Below, in pieces: positions 13,625 to 57,005 of a stretch of 64,000 bases of DNA. A program made the translations under genes and the position numbers. The DNA is from Nanobdellota archaeon (GTDB lineage Archaea > Nanobdellota > Nanobdellia > Pacearchaeales > GW2011-AR1). The notes under the pieces are model-generated. The model was given only the letters and a program-made list of their open reading frames with translations. It was not told the origin of the DNA and made no database searches. The number at the start of each line of letters is the position of its first letter. Positions within the stretch are counted from its first letter, which is position 1. Location of the stretch: NCBI GenBank assembly GCA_038046245.1, contig JBBSWO010000003.1, positions 13,879 through 77,878 on the forward strand, given 5' to 3'.

Positions 13625-13915
13625 TCAGTTATGCTGAAAAGGATTTTCTAAATCTACTTGATGGCTGTCAACCTCAACAGTATTTTTAGGATCAAAATCT
13701 CTTAATTTTTTTGCTAAACCTTCAATAAACTCACTAGTCTCTGACACAAATTCTATTATCCCTTTTCCAGGCATTTTCCTCAAATCATATCCCACCAAAT
13801 GAGCTTGTTGTTCCTCTGCATAATCTATTGCAACCGCTGTTAACTTATCAATGTAATTTGATTCTCTTGCGTTATCAGATCTTACTATAACAACATGTCT
13901 CATATGTGGTTTCAT
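13625..13915 (-). CDS. hypothetical protein (96 aa)
   Basis: ATG ORF in the same orientation as, and directly downstream of, dnaG; no family recognised. Confidence 0.4.
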   Translation of the reverse strand: MKPHMRHVVIVRSDNARESNYIDKLTAVAIDYAEEQQAHLVGYDLRKMPGKGIIEFVSETSEFIEGLAKKLRDFDPKNTVEVDSHQVDLENPFQHN

Positions 13916-49077: not shown

Positions 49078-51090
49078 CTAAATCCTTTTCTTTCTCAGCA
49101 AATTAGCGTTCATCACAACAGTTATGCTAGATGCAGCCATTGCTATCTCAGCAATTATTGGATGTAAAATTCCCGCAATGGCTGCTGGAATCGCAACAAC
49201 ATTATATGCAAAAGCCCAGAACAGATTCTGTTTTATCTTTGAGAATGTGGCTTTTGAAAGACTTATTGCTGCAACAACGCCCATCAAAGACCCTCTTGCC
49301 AAGACCAAATCTCCAGCCTCAATCGCGATATCTGTCCCAGTTCCCATCGCAATTGCAACATTGGCTTGCTTCAAAGCAGGAGCATCATTGATTCCATCTC
49401 CAACAAAAGCGACCATTCCAAATCTTTGAAGTTCTTCAACTTTTTTCGCTTTGTCTTCAGGAAGGACGTTTGCAATCACTTCTTTGATTCCGACCTCTCT
49501 GGCTATAGTTCTAGCAGTTCTTTCATTATCTCCGGTTATCATGACTGTTTTATATCCCTGAATGTTAAGTATGCTTATGGCCTTGACAGAGTCTTCTTTA
49601 ACCCCATCAGCAATTCCGATTATTCCAATTGCCTTCCCATTTTCTGAAACAGTGACAGTTGTGTAACCTCTGTTTTCAAATTCCTCGATTTTCTCACTTA
49701 AATCGTTTAACTTTATTTTTCTCTCATTCATGAGTGTAGAATTGCCAATAACAATAATTTTCTTACCGATTTTTCCTTCAACACCTCTTCCTCTCAAAAT
49801 TTTGAAACCTTTGACATCTTTGTATTTTTTCAGATTGGCTTTGTTGACAATAGCTTTTGACAGAGGATGTTCACTCAATTTTTCAAGACTTCCTGCAATT
49901 TCCATCAGATAATTCTCTTTCACTTTAGAATAAACGTCTCTGACTTCAGGCTTGCCTTTTGTTATTGTTCCCGTTTTATCAAAGACGATAATTTTTACTT
50001 TTTTCATCGTCTGAATCGCTTCCCCTTTTCTTATGAGTATTCCTTTTTTTGCGCCAATACCTGAACCAACAGTGAGGGCAATTGGCACAGCCAATCCCAA
50101 AGCACAAGGGCATGCAATGACCAGGACAGAAATTGCAACACCTAAAGATCTTCCCAGTTCTCCGTTAAAATACCACCATCCTAAAAAAGTTAAGACAGAA
50201 ACAATCAAAATTGTTGGTACGAAAATGCTTGTAATCTTGTCAGCAAGTTTTTGTATGGGGACTTTGGTTCCTTGAGCTTCCTCGACAAGTTCAATGATAT
50301 GTGACAAAAAAGTGTCTTTCCCGATTTTTGTAGCTTTGATGTAAAGGATTCCATCTTGATTTATAGTGGCCCCGATAACGTTGCTGTCTTTTGTTTTGTC
50401 AACAGGCAGACTTTCTCCCGTCACCATAGATTCGTCAACAGCACTTTCACCTTTGACAACAACACCGTCCGTCGGGATTTTTTCTCCAGGTTTGACAATT
50501 ATTATGTCTCCAATCTTTAATTCAGAAACGGGAATTTCAACTTCTTCTTTTCCTCTCAAGACTCTTGCATTTTTTGCTCCAAGTTCTAGAAGTTTTTTTA
50601 TTTCCTGGGTTGCTCTTCCCCTTGCTTTAGCTTCTATATATTTTCCAGTTACAAAAATGGCCATTATCATTGCAGCAACCCCCGAATAATCGTTTATCTT
50701 CATGACAAAAGTTAATATTCCTGTAAGATAAGCAATGAGTGTTCCCAAAGAAATCAAAGAGTCCATATTAAAGTAGAAAGTAAAAAGGCCTCTTAGCCCA
50801 GATTTTAATGTTGAAAATCCAAATACAAACACTACTGGAAATCCAAGGACTAATAAGATTGTTATTGAGATTTGCTCGTTAAACAATTCCATTCCAAAAA
50901 ATCTCATTAAAATCATTAATACTGCTACTGGAATTGCAAAAATCCAGCTTCCTATTAATTTTTTCTTCCAGTTCCTTATTTCAGAATCTTCTACTGGCGC
51001 AGAATGATCATGATCTTCATGCCCCATATTCTTCATGCCTGAATGATTGTGCTCAGACATTTTCTTCATGCCGTTATATTGATGTTCCAT
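49078..51090 (-). CDS. copA: copper-translocating P1B-type ATPase
   Basis: CPC in [10 protein letters not shown], phosphorylation site DKTGTIT, hinge [12 protein letters not shown] actuator motif. The N-terminus is His/Met-rich ([16 protein letters not shown]) instead of an HMA domain. Confidence 0.9.
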
Positions 51091-51092
51091 TA

Positions 51093-51305
51093 TTATTCTA
51101 TAGAAATTGCTTTGTAACCAGTTCTTGCAACAGCTTTTTTAAGTTCTTCGGGATCGGTTTTCTCATCAATCTCCACGAATGCTTTTTTTCCGATCAGACT
51201 GACGCTAACTTCTTTAACACCAGAAACTTTTTTCAAACTTCTTTCAACATTTGTTGCACAGCTTGCACAGTCCATTCCTTCTATGTTTATTTTAATTTTT
51301 TTCAT
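51093..51305 (-). CDS. copZ: copper chaperone (HMA domain)
   Basis: GMDCASC metal-binding motif; 70 aa ferredoxin-like pattern. It ends 2 nt before copA starts. Confidence 0.85.
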
Positions 51306-51315
51306 GTTACAAAGA

Positions 51316-51368
51316 TATGTATTTATTTATCATATGATAACGTAAACCATATGACTATTTAAATGTTT
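51316..51368 (-). promoter_or_regulatory. copZ-copA promoter/operator module: TATA + two TCATATGA-type palindromes
   Basis: The coding strand reads AAAACATTTAAATAG-TCATATGG-TTTACGTTA-TCATATGA-TAAATAAATACATA. It is ~85% identical over ~52 bp to the module at 53646-53697. Confidence 0.5.
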
Positions 51369-51452
51369 TGTTGCAAAAAAAGGGAGAGGTCATAAGGAAA
51401 ACCGTAGCTCTCTTAAGGGAAGCTTCATAAAAGAAACCGTAGGTGTCTTTTA

Positions 51453-51836
51453 TTAATTGACTACTAAAGTCCCATAACCCATTCCCATCCCACATTGGAA
51501 CTTATATGTTCCTGCCTTTGTTGGTGTGAACTCGACATAATCGCTCGTGGATTGAAGGCTTTTTCTTACATTAAGACTCGGTATTGTAAACGTTCTGTAA
51601 CATCCAACAACACTATTATCTAGACTTATTCTAACTGGTTCATTTGCCTTTACAGTTACAGTATTAGGATAATAATTGTAATCTTTCATGCTTAGGACAA
51701 CATTTTGTATTTGTCCTGGTTGAGTGTTTGGAGGTATGACTGAACTTCCTGCAGTATTATCCCCTTTATCTTTAAAGATAAATATCCCTCCAACAACTAA
51801 AACTATAAACAAAATAACATAGACATATGTTTTCAT
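51453..51836 (-). CDS. cupredoxin-like domain protein, membrane-anchored (127 aa)
   Basis: N-terminal TM, then a beta-sandwich pattern ending EFTPTKAGTYKFQCGMGMGYGTLVV. The start overlaps the upstream stop (ATGA). Confidence 0.5.
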   Translation of the reverse strand: MKTYVYVILFIVLVVGGIFIFKDKGDNTAGSSVIPPNTQPGQIQNVVLSMKDYNYYPNTVTVKANEPVRISLDNSVVGCYRTFTIPSLNVRKSLQSTSDYVEFTPTKAGTYKFQCGMGMGYGTLVVN

Positions 51837-52315
51837 AGTAAGGCGGCTCCCCCGCAACCACATCCGCCGCCTGAGCCGCCACAGCTAGCTCCTGCTGCAA
51901 GAGGTTGTTCGGCGTATGCTGATTTGCTCCCATCATTTTCCAATACTGTGAAAGTTCCTTTGTACATGTTCATTGAGCACGCAATATTGAAAGTTCCAGC
52001 TTTGTCAGGAGTGAATTCTATTGTATTATCATTGCTGTTTAAATTTTTTCTAACATTGAATGAAGGTATGACCACTGATTTTGAGCATCCCGGCATTTTT
52101 GAAACATCTCCTTCAATTCTTACTGGAACACCTTTTGTCACAGTTGATGGTGTTAAAACATATTTTCCTCCTTCGACATACATCTTTATGATCTGGACAT
52201 TTCCCTGTGCTGGAAGTTTTTGTTCAATTGCTGAAACACTTTGGGAAAACACAAAGTAGCCAACTATAAAAATCACAAGAATGCTTAGCGCTCCAAACAC
52301 AGTACTTTTTTTCAT
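51833..52315 (-). CDS. cupredoxin-like domain protein with Cys/Gly-rich C-terminal tail
   Basis: Paralogue of the downstream gene (EFTPDKAGTFNIACSMNMYKGTFTV). The tail is GASCGGSGGGCGCGGAALL. The start overlaps the upstream stop (ATGA). Confidence 0.5.
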   Translation of the reverse strand: MKKSTVFGALSILVIFIVGYFVFSQSVSAIEQKLPAQGNVQIIKMYVEGGKYVLTPSTVTKGVPVRIEGDVSKMPGCSKSVVIPSFNVRKNLNSNDNTIEFTPDKAGTFNIACSMNMYKGTFTVLENDGSKSAYAEQPLAAGASCGGSGGGCGCGGAALL

Positions 52316-52995
52316 CCGAATAATAAACTCCTTGGTCCGAAGACCATTAGCCATGCAGTCACCGCAGTTAAAATAAAGCTCACGACTATTGTTGAAAAAT
52401 GATCAGCGAAATGTTCCCTGTCTTTTTCTTTAGTCTCTCCGTAAATCATATAGCTTAAACCAACCAATATAACTCCGCAGACTCCAAATATTATTATAGA
52501 CGCATATTTAAGATTATCGTTTAGCATCATGACTGCAGTCATAGCTCCCATTAGCCCTCCCATAAACCCGGCCATTGCTCCTTCCATAAATCCCATCACT
52601 CCACAGGTTAATCCATTCCAAATTCCTAATGCCATTCCTATGACAATCCCAAAGACACTTCCCCAGAACATTCCGTTAGTTGCTCCAATATAGAACCCTG
52701 CCAAAAATCCAGCAATCATTCCAATAGTCATCCCAATCATCATTCCAGACATGCATGAGAAAAACTTGTAAGCCTGAACCTGCCTTACAGTTGGAAGAAT
52801 AAGAGCATAGCTCAAAACAGCAAAAAACAAATAGAACCCATATTTGGGCATAAAGTTTTCAATAAACCTGAATCTGAGATAATACATAACTGCCAAGAGA
52901 ACAAACGAAGTTATCAAAGATATGAAAATAGTCTTGACAATTTCTCCTTCGACTCTCTTGCCATTTAACTCCTTGATGAATTCTTTTACGGCCAT
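52312..52995 (-). CDS. Met/Gly-rich polytopic membrane protein
   Basis: 227 aa, about 6 TM. The helices are dominated by G, M and A (MSGMMIGMTIGMIAGFLAGF..., MEGAMAGFMGGLMGAMTAVMM). Confidence 0.5.
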   Translation of the reverse strand: MAVKEFIKELNGKRVEGEIVKTIFISLITSFVLLAVMYYLRFRFIENFMPKYGFYLFFAVLSYALILPTVRQVQAYKFFSCMSGMMIGMTIGMIAGFLAGFYIGATNGMFWGSVFGIVIGMALGIWNGLTCGVMGFMEGAMAGFMGGLMGAMTAVMMLNDNLKYASIIIFGVCGVILVGLSYMIYGETKEKDREHFADHFSTIVVSFILTAVTAWLMVFGPRSLLFG

Positions 52996-52996
52996 T

Positions 52997-53308
52997 TTAT
53001 TTTTGTATTTGTTTAATAAGCCAGACTATGAGCAAAATTATCGCTATCGTTATCAAAATCATAAAAAACCACCCAAACGCATTCATTCCATATCCGCCAT
53101 AAAAACCACTCATCATGCCGCCGTACCCGCCATAACCCATCATCCCATATCCAAAACCCCCGATTAAAATGAGTCCAAATAAGGCAATCAATACAATAAC
53201 TAAAGTGTTGTTGGTTTTAGCAGATTTATTGAATTTTCTGGTTGCAGGATTATTGTACTTTCCGGTTGCAGGATTCATAAAAACCCGCCGGTGGTTTTTA
53301 TTTTTCAT
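52997..53308 (-). CDS. small membrane protein with Gly/Tyr/Met-rich loop
   Basis: Two TM helices flank GYGMMGYGGYGGMMSGFYGGYGMN. It overlaps the arsR stop by 11 nt. Confidence 0.5.
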   Translation of the reverse strand: MKNKNHRRVFMNPATGKYNNPATRKFNKSAKTNNTLVIVLIALFGLILIGGFGYGMMGYGGYGGMMSGFYGGYGMNAFGWFFMILITIAIILLIVWLIKQIQK

Positions 53309-53663
53309 ATTTCATTTCCCTCAATATATGGATGCAATTTCCAGCCATGTGTTTCTCAATAATGTCCATCATGGGCTTTATAGTCTCTTCGTTCAGCTCG
53401 TAATACCTGAACTTTCCTTCACTTTCAACTTTTACAAAACCACATCTTTTTAATCTTGCCAGATCATGTGAGGCTGATGTTTGGTCCAAATCCAATTCCT
53501 GCATAATTTCAGAAACATTCTTTTTTCCTTTTCTTAAAAAATTGATTATTTTAAGCCTTGATTCTGAGACAAGAGTTCCGAAAAATATTTTGTATGCTCC
53601 GTAAAGTTCATTCTCGTTATAACCTTCATGGTGGGCGTGATGCAGTATGTTTTTGTTTATCAT
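53298..53663 (-). CDS. ArsR/SmtB-family metalloregulator
   Basis: wHTH block LKIINFLRKGKKNVSEIMQELDLDQTSASHDLARLKRCGFVKVESEGKFRYYEL with a His-rich N-terminus (HHAHHEG). ATG at 53663 (MINKNILHH) is preferred over the TTG at 53675. Confidence 0.75.
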   Translation of the reverse strand: MINKNILHHAHHEGYNENELYGAYKIFFGTLVSESRLKIINFLRKGKKNVSEIMQELDLDQTSASHDLARLKRCGFVKVESEGKFRYYELNEETIKPMMDIIEKHMAGNCIHILREMKYEK

Positions 53664-53697
53664 ATGAGAGCCCAAATCATATGACTATTTAAAGTTT
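53646..53697 (-). promoter_or_regulatory. arsR-operon promoter/operator module: TATA + two TCATATGA palindromes, the second containing the start codon
   Basis: The coding strand reads AAAACTTTAAATAG-TCATATGA-TTTGGGCTC-TCATATGA-TAAAC. The ATG lies ~22 nt after the TATA element, which implies a leaderless mRNA. Confidence 0.5.
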
Positions 53698-53747
53698 TCT
53701 CTAAGAACAAAAAATAAGAATTAAAATTATAAAACAAAAATAAAAAA

Positions 53748-54488
53748 TTAAGCAGCCAAAGCCGCGTCAATAGCACTCTGGAATGCAGCAAAAGGCTGTG
53801 CACCGCTTATTAATCTGCCATCTACAAAGAATGCAGGCGTACCCTGAACTCCATAGTTCTGGCCTTCTGTAGAATCTTTTTGAACTTCAGCGGTCATTGC
53901 TCCAGAATCTAGACATGTGGCAAATTTAGTTGCGTCAAGCCCTGATTCCTGTGCATACTTCTTAAGGCTGGCAACATCCAAAGCTCCCTGATTTGCGAAC
54001 ATTTTATCATGCATCTTGAAGTAGGCACTGTCTCCGCCCTGTTCTCCAGCACATTCAGCAGCTTCTGCAGCTTTTTGTGCAAAGGGATGTATACTATTCA
54101 AAGGAAAGTCTCTAAAGACTAACCTGACTTTTCCAGTATCAATATAGTTTTTTTGTATCTGAGGTAACGTGTCTGTCCAGAATCTTCCACAGAATGGACA
54201 TTGGTAATCAGAGAATTCAACTATTGTGACTTTGGCATCTTTTTTTCCAGTCATTGCATCGTCATCAATGCTTACTTTAACAGCGCTTGGCGTTGGTGCA
54301 GTAGGATTTGCAGTAGGTGTTGGCGCGACAGCTGCTCCTGTTGTTGGAACCCCGTTTTTTCCCAATCCGAAACCTCCTGTAAAAAGGCTTATCACTAAAA
54401 GTGCAGCGAAAACAAAAGTTGCTCCTTTCCACAGACTATCTTTCTTTATCGTTATTGCTCCACTTTCTTCGTTTTTTTCTTCACTCAT
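53748..54488 (-). CDS. membrane-anchored DsbA-family thiol:disulfide oxidoreductase
   Basis: N-terminal TM, Ala/Pro/Thr linker, then a thioredoxin-fold domain with CPFC (EFSDYQCPFCGRF) and the GTPAFFV cis-Pro region. Confidence 0.75.
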   Translation of the reverse strand: MSEEKNEESGAITIKKDSLWKGATFVFAALLVISLFTGGFGLGKNGVPTTGAAVAPTPTANPTAPTPSAVKVSIDDDAMTGKKDAKVTIVEFSDYQCPFCGRFWTDTLPQIQKNYIDTGKVRLVFRDFPLNSIHPFAQKAAEAAECAGEQGGDSAYFKMHDKMFANQGALDVASLKKYAQESGLDATKFATCLDSGAMTAEVQKDSTEGQNYGVQGTPAFFVDGRLISGAQPFAAFQSAIDAALAA

Positions 54489-54587
54489 TTTTATACCTCC
54501 TTACATTGATTAAGTATCACAAAATTTCACCAAAATAAGTAAAAATCCTAATAACTTATTTTTTATAAACTTTCTGGTTCTTCAAAG

Positions 54588-55256
54588 CTATTTTTCAGTT
54601 ATTATAAAGTCCTCTTCAGCACCAAGTTCCAAAAGGCTGTTTTTTATGTCTTTCACAAAAAATGGCGGGCCGCATATGTAAAAATGCTGGCCAAAATCTT
54701 TTATTCTGTCTTTTAAAAATTTCTTGTTTATTTTTCCATATTCATAACCTTTTTTCTTCTCTTCAGTCAAAACCAAAACCAAATTTTCCTTAAACATATC
54801 AACCAATTCTTTTTCAAAAAGAATGTCTTCCTTTTTTTTATTCGAGAATATCAAAGTGTTCCCATCCAACTTATTTTCTTTTTTAAGCTGTCTTGATATT
54901 GCGATAAATGGAGTGACTCCCGCCCCTCCAGCGATGAAAACTCCTTTTCCTTTGTAGCTTATTGTTCCAAACGGGTCTTCTATGATAAGTTCATCTCCAG
55001 GTTTTAATTCATGAAGCTTTTCAGTGACTCCATCTTTGTATTTTTTTATTGTGAACTCAAGGACTAAATCATCATTTAAGCCACATATCGTGAAAGCTCT
55101 TTTTTTCATCTCAAATCCTGGTTTGTTTATCGAGACATCCGCAGCCTGTCCGGGCATAAATCTGTAACCATTTGGTTTTTCAACAATGAAACTTTTGACA
55201 TTGTGGCTTACAAAATCTGTTTTCATGACTTTTAGAATTTTAACCTTATGCTGCAT
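54588..55256 (-). CDS. FNR-like FAD/NAD(P)-binding oxidoreductase
   Basis: RAFTI (RxYS-type FAD motif) and GGAGVTPF (NAD(P) motif); 222 aa, two-domain size. Confidence 0.7.
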   Translation of the reverse strand: MQHKVKILKVMKTDFVSHNVKSFIVEKPNGYRFMPGQAADVSINKPGFEMKKRAFTICGLNDDLVLEFTIKKYKDGVTEKLHELKPGDELIIEDPFGTISYKGKGVFIAGGAGVTPFIAISRQLKKENKLDGNTLIFSNKKKEDILFEKELVDMFKENLVLVLTEEKKKGYEYGKINKKFLKDRIKDFGQHFYICGPPFFVKDIKNSLLELGAEEDFIITEK

Positions 55257-55492
55257 TATTTTCCCTTTCTCCTATTCAGCTCTTTCACCAATTCTTCAAC
55301 ATCTTTTTTTGTCATGCCATGCACAGCTGCTCCCTGCTCGATTGTTTCATGAACAGACATTGGGCATCCAACACAACCAAATCCAACATCATAAAGTGTT
55401 TCCATTGCCTCCGGATTTTCCTCAATAAGATCTCCGATTTTCATGTCCGCAGTTATTTTTTTCTTGACTTTTGTAGTTTTTTTTGTTCTCAT
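55256..55492 (-). CDS. DUF1858-type small redox protein
   Basis: IGDLIEENPEAMETLYDVGFGCVGCPMSVHETIEQGAAVHGM matches the DUF1858 pattern. It overlaps both neighbours by 1-4 nt. Confidence 0.65.
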   Translation of the reverse strand: MRTKKTTKVKKKITADMKIGDLIEENPEAMETLYDVGFGCVGCPMSVHETIEQGAAVHGMTKKDVEELVKELNRRKGK

Positions 55493-56625
55493 TTCAGCAC
55501 CTTCCTCAACTTCTCAACGATTCTATTTAATTTTTCCAAGAAATAATCAACATCTTCTTTTGTTGTGTACTTGCTTATGCTTATTCTTATAGAGCCTGCT
55601 AGTTGTTTTTGATTTAATCCTATTGCCTTCAAGACATGGCTTGATTCTCCGGAATGTGAAGAGCACGCAGAGCCTGTTGAAACATATATTCCATCATTTT
55701 CTAAATATCCTCCCAAAGCCTCTCCATCTATGTTGCCGAATGAAACATTTACATTGTTGCAAAGCCTTTTTTCTTTCGGTCCGTTGAGGTTTGTGTTAGG
55801 AATTTTCAAGATTTTTTCCATTAAATAATTTCTTAACTCTGTCATATTTTTCACATCTTTTTGATTTGCAACTTCGACAGCCTTGGCAAACCCAACAATT
55901 CCAGAAACATTTTCTGTTCCTGACCTCAATTTTTTTTCGTGTCCTCCCCCATGTAATAAAGGATCAATCTTTATTCCTTCTCTTATGTACAAGGCCCCAA
56001 CTCCCTTTGGTCCGTGAATTTTGTGGGAATTTATTGTCATCAAATCAATATTCATTTTTTTCACATCAATTGGAACTTTCGTGAAACTCTGGCAAGCGTC
56101 TGTGTGAAATAAAACTCCCTTTGCCTTGCATATTTTTCCAATCTCTTCTATATTCTGTATAGTACCTATCTCATTGTTGCCATGAATTATTGAAACAAGG
56201 AAAGTCTTTGAAGTAATTGCTCTTTCAACGTCTTTAAGATTTACAAAACCCTCTTTATCAACATCTAAATAAGTCACTTGTGCGACATGTTTTTCAAGAT
56301 ATTTGCAGGTATTTAGCACACAGTCATGTTCTATTTTAGAAGTTATTATGTGTGTTTTGGAAGGATAGTTTGCATAGCTTAATCCCGTGATCGCAAAATT
56401 ATTGCTCTCTGTTCCTCCAGAAGTAAAAATAATCTCCGAAGGTTTTGCATTTATTGATTTGGCTATCACTCGCCTGGAATTTTCCAGAGCGTTTTTTGCT
56501 TCAACTCCAAAAGCGTGGACAGAAGAAGCGTTTCCATACTTCTCGCTAAAATAAGAAAGCATCTCTTTCAAAACTTTTTCGTCAACTTTTGTAGTTGCTG
56601 CGTTATCAAGATAAATTTGTTTCAT
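55489..56625 (-). CDS. nifS: cysteine desulfurase (NifS/IscS class V aminotransferase)
   Basis: PLP-lysine block INSHKIHGPKGVG and active-site loop STGSACSSHSGE; the N-terminus IYLDNAATT is typical. Confidence 0.9.
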   Translation of the reverse strand: MKQIYLDNAATTKVDEKVLKEMLSYFSEKYGNASSVHAFGVEAKNALENSRRVIAKSINAKPSEIIFTSGGTESNNFAITGLSYANYPSKTHIITSKIEHDCVLNTCKYLEKHVAQVTYLDVDKEGFVNLKDVERAITSKTFLVSIIHGNNEIGTIQNIEEIGKICKAKGVLFHTDACQSFTKVPIDVKKMNIDLMTINSHKIHGPKGVGALYIREGIKIDPLLHGGGHEKKLRSGTENVSGIVGFAKAVEVANQKDVKNMTELRNYLMEKILKIPNTNLNGPKEKRLCNNVNVSFGNIDGEALGGYLENDGIYVSTGSACSSHSGESSHVLKAIGLNQKQLAGSIRISISKYTTKEDVDYFLEKLNRIVEKLRKVLK

Positions 56626-56626
56626 T

Positions 56627-56959
56627 TTAGGCTAGCTTATGACTGACTTTTCCACACTTAGAACAAGGAGTTTTGCAAAAATTAGTGGAATGTTTGTTGA
56701 TTAAATCTAACATGGGCAATATTGTTTTTCTGTTCAAGAAATAAATCCTTTCTTTTCCTTTCTTTTTGGATTCAACAATATTGCAGCATCTTAACGCAGC
56801 CAAAGCATGAGAGAGCTTGCTCTGTTCAACTCCAAGTTCTTTATACAATTTAGTTACACTTTTCTCTTTGTCCCTTAAACTCAAGATTATATCAATCCTT
56901 AATGGGTTTGCAAGATTGCTGAAAAAGAAGTGATAAGCTCCATTGGCTGAATTACTCAT
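56627..56959 (-). CDS. ArsR-family wHTH regulator with C-terminal Cys cluster
   Basis: LANPLRIDIILSLRDKEKSVTKLYKELGVEQSKLSHALAALRCCNIV wHTH, and a C-terminal CKTPCSKCGK. It ends 1 nt before nifS starts. Confidence 0.7.
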   Translation of the reverse strand: MSNSANGAYHFFFSNLANPLRIDIILSLRDKEKSVTKLYKELGVEQSKLSHALAALRCCNIVESKKKGKERIYFLNRKTILPMLDLINKHSTNFCKTPCSKCGKVSHKLA

Positions 56960-56990
56960 ATGAAGCCATATTCATATATATTTATAAATG
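56956..56990 (-). promoter_or_regulatory. third TATA + TCATATGA-type module (arsR-nifS operon)
   Basis: The coding strand reads CATTTATAAATATA-TATGAATA-TGGCT-TCATATGA-GTAAT. The ATG start lies inside the proximal palindrome, the same geometry as at 53660-53667. Confidence 0.4.
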
Positions 56991-57005
56991 TTTGGATAAC
57001 AAAGC

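Follow-up and report, generated by a model that had tools for sequence, protein, structure and literature searches.

The 64,000-nucleotide stretch of contig JBBSWO010000003.1 analysed here (positions 13,879 to 77,878; the window) carries three promoter modules in which a TATA box is followed by CATATG-type palindromes. The modules precede copZ-copA, an operon led by the ArsR-family gene arsR1 and an operon led by its paralogue arsR2, and all of their genes lie on the minus strand. The genome of 705 kb (GC 35%; 11 contigs) was assigned to a DPANN archaeon, as its relatives are metagenome-assembled genomes (MAGs) deposited as Nanoarchaeota, Pacearchaeota or Woesearchaeota; more than 100 related genomes were compared. 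An earlier note on this DNA had read the modules as three copies of one operator, through which a single ArsR repressor wires the whole island together. The present analysis points to two separate, autoregulated ArsR/SmtB-type circuits, with ArsR1 serving copper and ArsR2 serving iron-sulfur (Fe-S) and oxidative-stress functions, a reading that we consider probable.

The products of both arsR genes belong to the ArsR/SmtB family by Pfam, which was used for the domain calls. ArsR1 (53298..53663, minus strand; 121 aa) scored 46.8 bits and ArsR2 (56627-56959, minus strand; 110 aa, with a Cys-rich C-terminus) scored 39.6 bits against HTH_5 (PF01022), for which the curated cutoff is 22 bits. The two proteins are 41% identical. 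The remainder of the arsR1 operon (51453..53308, minus strand) encodes a Gly/Tyr/Met-rich small membrane protein (GYG; 52997-53308), a Met-rich membrane protein (52312-52995) and two cupredoxin-like proteins (Pfam Cupredoxin_1; 51833-52315 and 51453-51836, starts uncertain). These open reading frames (ORFs) overlap or abut, and the Met-rich/cupredoxin cassette sits elsewhere in relatives. The copper export genes are copZ (51093-51305, minus strand), encoding an HMA domain, and copA (49078-51090, minus strand), encoding a P1B-type ATPase with the Pfam domains E1-E2_ATPase and Hydrolase. By the established rule that relates motif to specificity in P1B-ATPases, CopA has the motifs of a P1B-1 Cu(I)/Ag(I) ATPase, with CPC in transmembrane helix (TM) 6, YN in TM7 and MxxSS in TM8 (MAASSITV), as read in the translation.

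The arsR2 operon (54588..56959, minus strand) continues with genes for a NifS-type cysteine desulfurase (class-V aminotransferase; 55489-56625), a DUF1858 protein (55256-55492) and an FNR-like FAD/NAD oxidoreductase (54588-55256), all assigned by Pfam, and its genes abut or overlap. A nifS-like ORF directly follows arsR2 in at least one relative, as read in the translations. Between the two operons lies a DsbA-like gene with its own AAAGTTTATAAAA promoter and AAGGAGGT Shine-Dalgarno sequence (54489-54587, minus strand). As no ArsR-type site was found at this promoter, the gene was placed outside both circuits in this genome.

Each module begins with a TATA box preceded by a B recognition element (BRE). 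The TATA box TTTAAATA is present in the arsR1 operon promoter at 53686-53693 (with the BRE GAAAAC, 53686..53699) and in the copZ-copA promoter at 51356-51363 (with the BRE AAAACA, 51356..51369), both on the minus strand and both fitting the BRE/TATA consensus of the genome. The arsR2 operon promoter has the TATA box TTTATAAA at 56981-56988 (with the BRE CCAAACA, 56981..56995; minus strand). Read on the minus strand, the copZ module is AAAACATTTAAATAG-TCATATGG-TTTACGTTA-TCATATGA-TAAATAAATACATATC, and continues to the copZ start as TCATATGA-TAAATAAATACATATCTTTGTAAC-ATG. The arsR1 module is GAAAACTTTAAATAG-TCATATGA-TTTGGGCTC-TCATATGA-TAAACAAAAACATAC, and the arsR2 module is AAACATTTATAAATAT (or CCAAACATTTATAAATAT)-ATATGAAT-ATGGCT-TCATATGA-GTAAT, with its proximal box at 56956-56963. 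The palindromes are spaced 17, 17 and 16 bp from start to start in the copZ, arsR1 and arsR2 modules, respectively, as the earlier note had described, and the three modules were present where it had placed them; all of its sequence statements hold. The identity of about 85% that it gave for the copZ and arsR1 blocks corresponds to 41 of 48 matching positions, from TTTAAATAG to ACATA, counted on the printed strings. The shared AAAACATTTAAATAG was rejected as a sign of paralogy, since AAAC(A/T)TTTAWAWA corresponds to the BRE/TATA consensus seen generally in this genome and is uninformative on that point.

Chance occurrence of the dyad, an objection that the earlier note itself had raised, does not account for the modules. 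With up to two mismatches allowed, five dyads were found in the window against 0.25 expected, and genome-wide there were seven against 2.6 in Markov simulations. The TCATATGA octamer alone is weakly enriched in the window (4 versus 1.56 expected); the genome holds 15 such octamers, four of which sit in these modules. CATATG itself, the NdeI site, occurs 125 times in the genome compared with a rough base-composition estimate of about 240, an approximately two-fold depletion.

The position of the start codon was examined against a genome-wide survey of ORFs of at least 80 codons, scored by the distance of the start from a TTTAWAWA octamer. Exactly 21 nt separate the octamer from the start in 110 ORFs, against a background of about three per offset, and 21 nt is the modal leaderless spacing of the genome. 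The arsR2 ATG lies 21 nt after its TATA octamer, and the arsR1 ATG (53663-53661) and the ATG in the proximal box of the copZ module each lie 22 nt after theirs. Because these distances match the genome-wide peak, we strongly infer that transcripts starting at the three ATGs, the predicted start sites, are leaderless. In both arsR genes the ATG forms bases 5-7 of the proximal box, so the earlier claim of a start codon inside the (predicted) operator of a probably leaderless gene stands.

In the 71 orthologous arsR1 promoters, the conserved unit is an array of three CATATG-type boxes in a 17-bp phase, ATATG...CAT-ATG...CATAT, in which box 1 follows the TATA box, box 2 contains the ATG and box 3 falls on codons 5-7. 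The consensus reads TTTAAATAgtcATATGTAT...attaTCATATGATAAAtAAAa.CATATTA. ATATG at -19 to -15 and CATATG at -3 to +2 are invariant, CATAT at +14 to +18 is near-invariant, and the boxes together cover -20 to +3 and +13 to +20 relative to the ATG. Of 70 promoters, 69 have the 17-bp spacing, and the sequence between the boxes is variable, as would be expected of a phylogenetic footprint. When the whole genome was scanned with class-specific position weight matrices (PWMs), the arsR1 operator (53644..53684, minus strand) gave the best score, 27.5, and the copZ-copA operator (51314..51354, minus strand) the second, 19.9; these two promoters alone scored highly, and the scan returned no further ArsR1-type site above them. 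The arsR1 boxes lie at 53677-53684 (box 1), 53660-53667 (box 2, within which the ATG lies) and 53644-53650 (box 3, ACATACT, codons 5-7). Those of copZ lie at 51347-51354 (box 1, TCATATGG), 51330-51337 (box 2) and 51314-51320 (box 3, ACATATC). The earlier proposal that copZ-copA carries an arsR1-type operator is thus borne out at the level of prediction.

As box 3 lies in coding sequence that also specifies a conserved peptide (MINKxIL), and as the start codon lies within box 2, the boxes could be basal signals, whether initiator or promoter-proximal elements, a signal for leaderless translation or a by-product of coding, rather than repressor sites. We regard this explanation as extremely improbable. 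At codon 5 of arsR1 the amino acid may be N, T, S, D, A, G, Y or P, while the third base is C in 67 of the 71 orthologues; for the same amino acids elsewhere in arsR1 genes, C-ending codons make up 17%. As the third base is fixed where the amino acid varies, box 3 is, on the evidence of codon usage, a nucleotide-level element of the predicted operator. It also persists where no ArsR is encoded: upstream of copZ in this genome (ACATATC), upstream of a Met-rich membrane gene in a genome of the same genus (GCATATT), and at copA or copZ promoters in two further genera. In another relative (L157, 4737-4800), a three-box module precedes an unrelated gene for a 99-aa Cys/His-rich membrane protein without a Pfam hit, and there the box-2 ATG is mutated to ATT, with loss of the mini-ORF. 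A general initiator or leaderless start context was rejected for CATATG, since CAT precedes the ATG in just 4 of 120 leaderless-type genes, and both boxes combine in the two arsR genes only. Furthermore, the boxes are arranged symmetrically about a dyad, as would be expected of a protein that binds DNA as a dimer: with the middle of box 2 as the axis, box 1 (ATATG) and box 3 (CATAT) are mirror images, position by position, in 81-99% of the sequences. On this basis the predicted ArsR1 operator is a pseudo-palindrome of about 38-40 bp centred on the ATG. An equivalent description is a pair of ATATG-N11-CATAT inverted repeats that overlap in the start-codon box, and two ArsR1 dimers would probably occupy the operator.

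The ArsR2 class has a different geometry. In 32 distinct promoter sequences from different genera, ATATGAA at -18 to -12 and TTCATATG at -5 to +2 are invariant (32/32), the spacing is 16 bp in all 32, the TATA box lies at -29 to -22, and the six bases between the half-sites vary freely. The TC that would complete the distal TCATATGA is not conserved in these promoters. The unit is therefore a single inverted repeat, ATATGAA-N6-TTCATAT, which covers -18 to +2 relative to the ATG. Since the distal-box TC is conserved in neither promoter set, the twin TCATATGA palindromes of the earlier note do not form the conserved unit. In this genome the repeat is ATATGAATATGGCTTCATAT at 56958..56977 (minus strand), overlapping the arsR2 ATG (56959-56957). 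The exact repeat was found in 57 of 151 family genomes, whereas the reversed pattern, used as a control, was found in one. Its core, TGAA-N6-TTCA, is that of the published SmtB/ArsR 12-2-12 operator. The ArsR1 class departs from this core, as ATATGTAT...TCATATGA with one extra base pair. A possible third box in the ArsR2 class, CATA[TC] at +16, occurs in 21 of the 32 promoters, where it coincides with conserved T-Y-H codons, and is absent from arsR2 of this genome.

The ArsR2-type PWM scored highly at three promoters of the genome, those of arsR2, of a sod-sufB-nifU-like operon and of an operon of doxX and a pyridine-nucleotide-disulfide oxidoreductase gene (Pyr_redox_2). The repeat ATATGAAAAATCATTCATAT (contig C1, 141596-141615, outside the window) adjoins the TATA box of the first of these additional operons, which encodes an Fe/Mn superoxide dismutase, SufB and a NifU-like scaffold. 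The repeat ATATGAAATTTTTTTCATAT (contig C3, 84321-84342, about 6.5 kb past the end of the window) adjoins the TATA box of the second, which has a GGGAGG Shine-Dalgarno sequence. In relatives, an ArsR2-type repeat stands beside a TATA box upstream of sod (three genera) and of an AhpC/TSA peroxiredoxin gene; the repeat also stands upstream of sufB and of a dsbA-like gene, at which a TATA box could not be identified. Another pair of palindromes, GTTATAAC-TT-GTTATAAC, follows the same BRE/TATA consensus on contig C3 at 79968-80030, about 2 kb past the end of the window, and is presumably the operator of another regulator.

These comparisons bear directly on the proposal that a single ArsR-type repressor, acting on TCATATGA dyads, co-regulates the copper export, cupredoxin and nifS operons. 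CATATG boxes beside a TATA box are indeed common to the three modules, and the paralogues are close enough (41% identity, with recognition helices alike) for one protein to be imagined at all of them. The proposal is nonetheless improbable. Across the related genomes there are two paralogue-specific classes rather than three copies of one operator: over about 100 promoters, each class has its own spacing (17 bp in 69/70 versus 16 bp in 32/32) and flanking bases, which follow the paralogue, and class-specific PWMs split the sites cleanly. A third box that is separable from coding constraint occurs in ArsR1-type sites only. Many genomes have ArsR2 and its operator without ArsR1, and the functions of the regulons differ, with copper genes on one side and nifS, sod, suf and peroxiredoxin genes on the other. 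Because the operator class co-varies with the paralogue and the target sets differ, we favour two circuits. The broader claim of the earlier note, that the modules are (predicted) promoter/operator elements of ArsR-family autoregulators, was supported.

The structure and conserved residues of the two proteins were then considered in relation to these circuits. The AlphaFold model of ArsR1 (predicted local distance difference test score 87) places the helices and wing in canonical ArsR/SmtB order, and the top Foldseek matches of the model were CzrA, HlyU, SqrR and SmtB, with target template-modelling scores of 0.7-0.84; the modelled fold is that of the ArsR/SmtB family. Residue conservation gives H11 (with C10 in most orthologues), C74, H105, M106, C110 and H112 as candidate ligands of ArsR1, with His, Cys and Met candidates in the N-terminal arm and helix alpha-5. 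ArsR1 of this genome has A10-H11 within an HHAHH run. The conserved residues of ArsR2 are C59, H90, C95, C99 and C102. The classical alpha-3N (CxC) and alpha-5 (DxHx10Hx2E) metal sites were not found in either protein, and helix 3 has no conserved Cys. What is seen instead is H-x4-C-x-H in alpha-5, together with a Cys that follows the recognition helix and a C-H pair at the N-terminus. The absence of the classical ligand motifs suggests a different sensory site, and differing sensory sites are common in the ArsR/SmtB family.

Most likely, the copper genes are under ArsR1, and ArsR2 governs an Fe-S/oxidative-stress regulon. As the predicted ArsR1 targets are a P1B-1 ATPase, CopZ and cupredoxin-like proteins, the most likely inducer of ArsR1 is Cu(I) or Ag(I); ArsR2 probably senses oxidation or Fe-S status. 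What the sequences show is the architecture, its conservation, its co-variation with the paralogue and the identities of the target genes; protein binding, stoichiometry, effectors, start sites and cross-talk are inferences. As the genes are probably leaderless, the start codon would lie inside the operator, which would fill the interval from the TATA box to the transcription start, and a bound repressor would block the recruitment of RNA polymerase or the opening of the promoter. ArsR1 would bind the arsR1 operator, which would drive arsR1 and the genes for two membrane and two cupredoxin-like proteins, as well as the copZ-copA operator; its second repeat would place a further obstacle immediately past the start. 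ArsR2 would bind ATATGAA-N6-TTCATAT at the promoters of arsR2-nifS-DUF1858-FNR-like, sod-sufB-nifU and doxX-flavoprotein.

Several observations weigh against this reading. The recognition helices of the two paralogues are similar (Q-[TS]-x-x-S-H-x-L), and both operator classes have an ATATG core, with spacings that differ by 1 bp. In this genome, arsR1 box 3 is degenerate (CATAC), copZ box 1 is TCATATGG, and ArsR1 lacks the common Cys10. Exact copies of the additional ArsR2-type sites are confined to a minority of genomes, most of which have a single site. Among the proteins of solved structure that are closest in sequence are sensors of persulfide (SqrR, BigR) in addition to metal sensors, and the proposed metal and redox specificities are derived from gene context and conserved Cys/His residues.

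The similar cores would also suit two regulators with partial cross-talk, in which each paralogue, or a heterodimer, binds both classes with differing affinity and so links copper and Fe-S stress. Copper toxicity targets Fe-S clusters, and given this damage such coupling would be physiologically sensible; in this genome, the two operons lie 3 kb apart. This proximity is not general, however: in the same-genus genome the two arsR genes are over 11 kb apart, and in other relatives they sit on different contigs. The strict spacing within each class also suggests discrimination by geometry. We consider cross-talk of this kind rather unlikely.

The origin of the copZ module was examined by comparison of gene order. 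In the same-genus genome and other relatives, arsR1-GYG-copZ-copA form a single operon, with the Met-rich/cupredoxin cassette upstream, whereas in this genome the cassette separates GYG from copZ, which has a module to itself. The difference from the same-genus genome indicates that a rearrangement clearly occurred in this lineage. The module could accordingly be a non-functional scar of a recent event that copied the arsR1 promoter and first codons. This is very improbable, as the three boxes and the TATA box are all intact, equivalent modules stand upstream of copper genes in at least three other genomes, and copZ-copA would otherwise be promoterless after the rearrangement, given the T7 run before the module. 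The module is also no closer to its own arsR1 promoter, with 44 of 58 positions matched, than to those of other genomes, which reach 48/58 (mean 39.9 in the comparison with 71 arsR1 promoters). With the own copy ranking no higher than foreign ones, a recent duplication of the arsR1 promoter at copZ was not demonstrable, and consensus and operator constraint would be enough for the identity of about 85% between the copZ and arsR1 copies. The arsR-like 5' stub described in the earlier note is therefore real, and its interpretation as the relic coding stub of a duplicated promoter is not upheld. It holds box 3; because box 3 lies within arsR1 codons 5-7, a transplanted module carries an arsR-like stub, and because box 3 persists where no ArsR is encoded, the stub at copZ is operator sequence that we predict to be functional. 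Three-box modules in relatives stand upstream of copA/copZ, of a Met-rich membrane gene and of one other gene; arsR1 is otherwise in one operon with copZ-copA there.

The mini-ORF MINKYISL* (51307..51333, minus strand; predicted leaderless) is also real. It starts at the box-2 ATG and, as previously described, ends just before the copZ ATG, with a gap of 1 nt. At equivalent modules elsewhere the mini-ORF reads MISKSILKWQ*, MTNKLI* or MII*, or is absent (ATG to ATT), and a conserved mini-ORF was rejected because length and presence vary between modules. The peptide is unlikely to matter, and the mini-ORF is probably a by-product, although translational coupling through its stop codon beside the copZ ATG, which has no Shine-Dalgarno sequence, is possible. 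Between the cupredoxin gene and the copZ promoter (51380-51445, minus strand) there is an imperfect direct repeat, CTACGGTTTCTTTTATGA / CTACGGTTTTCCTTATGA, and after it a T7 run that directly adjoins the copZ BRE. This region may be a terminator, an insulator or the remnant of a membrane-protein gene that follows the cupredoxin genes in relatives.

The sequence comparison indicates that the arsR1 N-terminus and its own predicted operator are dual-coded, with box 3 in codons 5-7. A bolder extension, which we put forward tentatively and hold to be doubtful, is that the operator and the N-terminal arm of ArsR1 (M-I-N-K-x-I-L before C10/H11) share 20 nt, that the unit of about 55 bp is a portable cassette, and that its mini-ORF serves in coupling. 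If so, the operator and the ArsR1 N-terminus would constrain each other's evolution (codons 1-7 being box 2, spacer and box 3), the TATA box and three boxes would recruit genes (copZA, Met-rich/cupredoxin and others) into the copper regulon, and each move of the cassette would create a leaderless mini-ORF that couples the translation of genes without a Shine-Dalgarno sequence. In one relative (L111, 2918-3010) there is a tandem duplication, with a full three-box module, arsR1 5' stub included, 62 nt before the true arsR1 start; that start has a box 2 and a box 3 of its own.

The DPANN archaea are uncultured and, to our knowledge, almost none of their transcription factors have been studied experimentally. 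The two predicted regulator-operator pairs, with consensus, spacing rules and candidate regulons, are open to tests with recombinant proteins. ArsR1 offers a clean natural case of a coding region with a second, DNA-level code, in which one synonymous position stays constant over some 70 lineages although the encoded amino acid changes, and it shows how a compact, leaderless-rich genome places the start codon inside a predicted operator. For annotation, the copper and Fe-S/oxidative-stress circuits are to be split, though the window alone looks like one metal/redox island. Nothing specific was found in the literature on a DPANN ArsR operator or on an archaeal ArsR-type copper regulator beside copA.

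Among known systems, ArsR1 and ArsR2 have their Pfam family, and ArsR1 its modelled fold, in common with the bacterial 12-2-12 regulators SmtB, CzrA, ZiaR, AztR and CadC. One published 12-2-12 example is AATACCTGAACA-GA-TGTTCAAGTATT, with the core TGAA-N6-TTCA (PMC8790569). The bacterial ArsR/SmtB systems are likewise autoregulated, with the repressor as the first gene of an efflux operon, and likewise have an inverted-repeat operator over the promoter or start, with one or two repeats per promoter known. They differ in several respects. Here the promoter is an archaeal BRE/TATA promoter, the predicted operator lies between TATA and start and not over -35/-10, the genes are predicted to be leaderless with the ATG inside the operator, the ArsR1 three-box array reaches 20 bp into the coding sequence, and the classical ligand motifs are absent.

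Archaeal repressors that bind downstream of the TATA box exclude RNA polymerase while the TATA-binding protein and transcription factor B stay bound (PMC2995911). The ArsR1 and ArsR2 sites lie between the TATA box and the (predicted) start or over the start, the same position as the operators of MDR1 of Archaeoglobus and of LrpA and Phr of Pyrococcus, and the same mechanism would be expected (PMC2995911). MDR1 is also a metal-dependent autoregulator of a transporter operon. MDR1 is DtxR-like and LrpA Lrp-like, and thus of other protein families than ArsR1 and ArsR2.

MsvR of methanogens and SurR of Thermococcales are archaeal winged-helix proteins with Cys-modulated DNA binding, autoregulation and oxidative-stress target genes, and with transcripts that are leaderless or have short leaders, the boxes overlapping elements of their promoters (PMC3729527). 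In contrast to MsvR, in which an ArsR-like helix-turn-helix is joined to a V4R domain, ArsR2 is a 110-aa single-domain protein, and neither ArsR protein gave a V4R Pfam hit; the MsvR boxes of M. acetivorans lie upstream of the TATA box, whereas the ArsR2 repeat lies downstream. SufR of cyanobacteria and actinobacteria is a [4Fe-4S] repressor with a Cys cluster, encoded beside Fe-S biogenesis genes, and its regulon, like that predicted for ArsR2, includes suf and cysteine desulfurase genes (PMC6034842; bioRxiv 2025 preprint). SufR is a member of the COG2345 family, whereas ArsR2 has only HTH_5 and a short Cys-rich tail. The two-domain architecture of SufR, in which the C-terminal domain binds the cluster, is not found in ArsR2, and the likeness is one of genomic context only. 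By these comparisons MsvR and SufR are functional analogues of ArsR2 as predicted here, unrelated in architecture.

The archaeal copper regulators CopR and CopT combine an Lrp-like helix-turn-helix with a TRASH domain and are encoded next to copA-copZ. ArsR1 resembles them in the adjacency of the regulator gene to copZ/copA and in its predicted response to copper, and differs in being of the ArsR/SmtB type without a TRASH domain by Pfam. ArsR1 and ArsR2 add two hitherto uncharacterised proteins to the ArsR/SmtB family that would act by a known logic, and their most interesting feature is the dual-coded three-box operator centred on the start codon.

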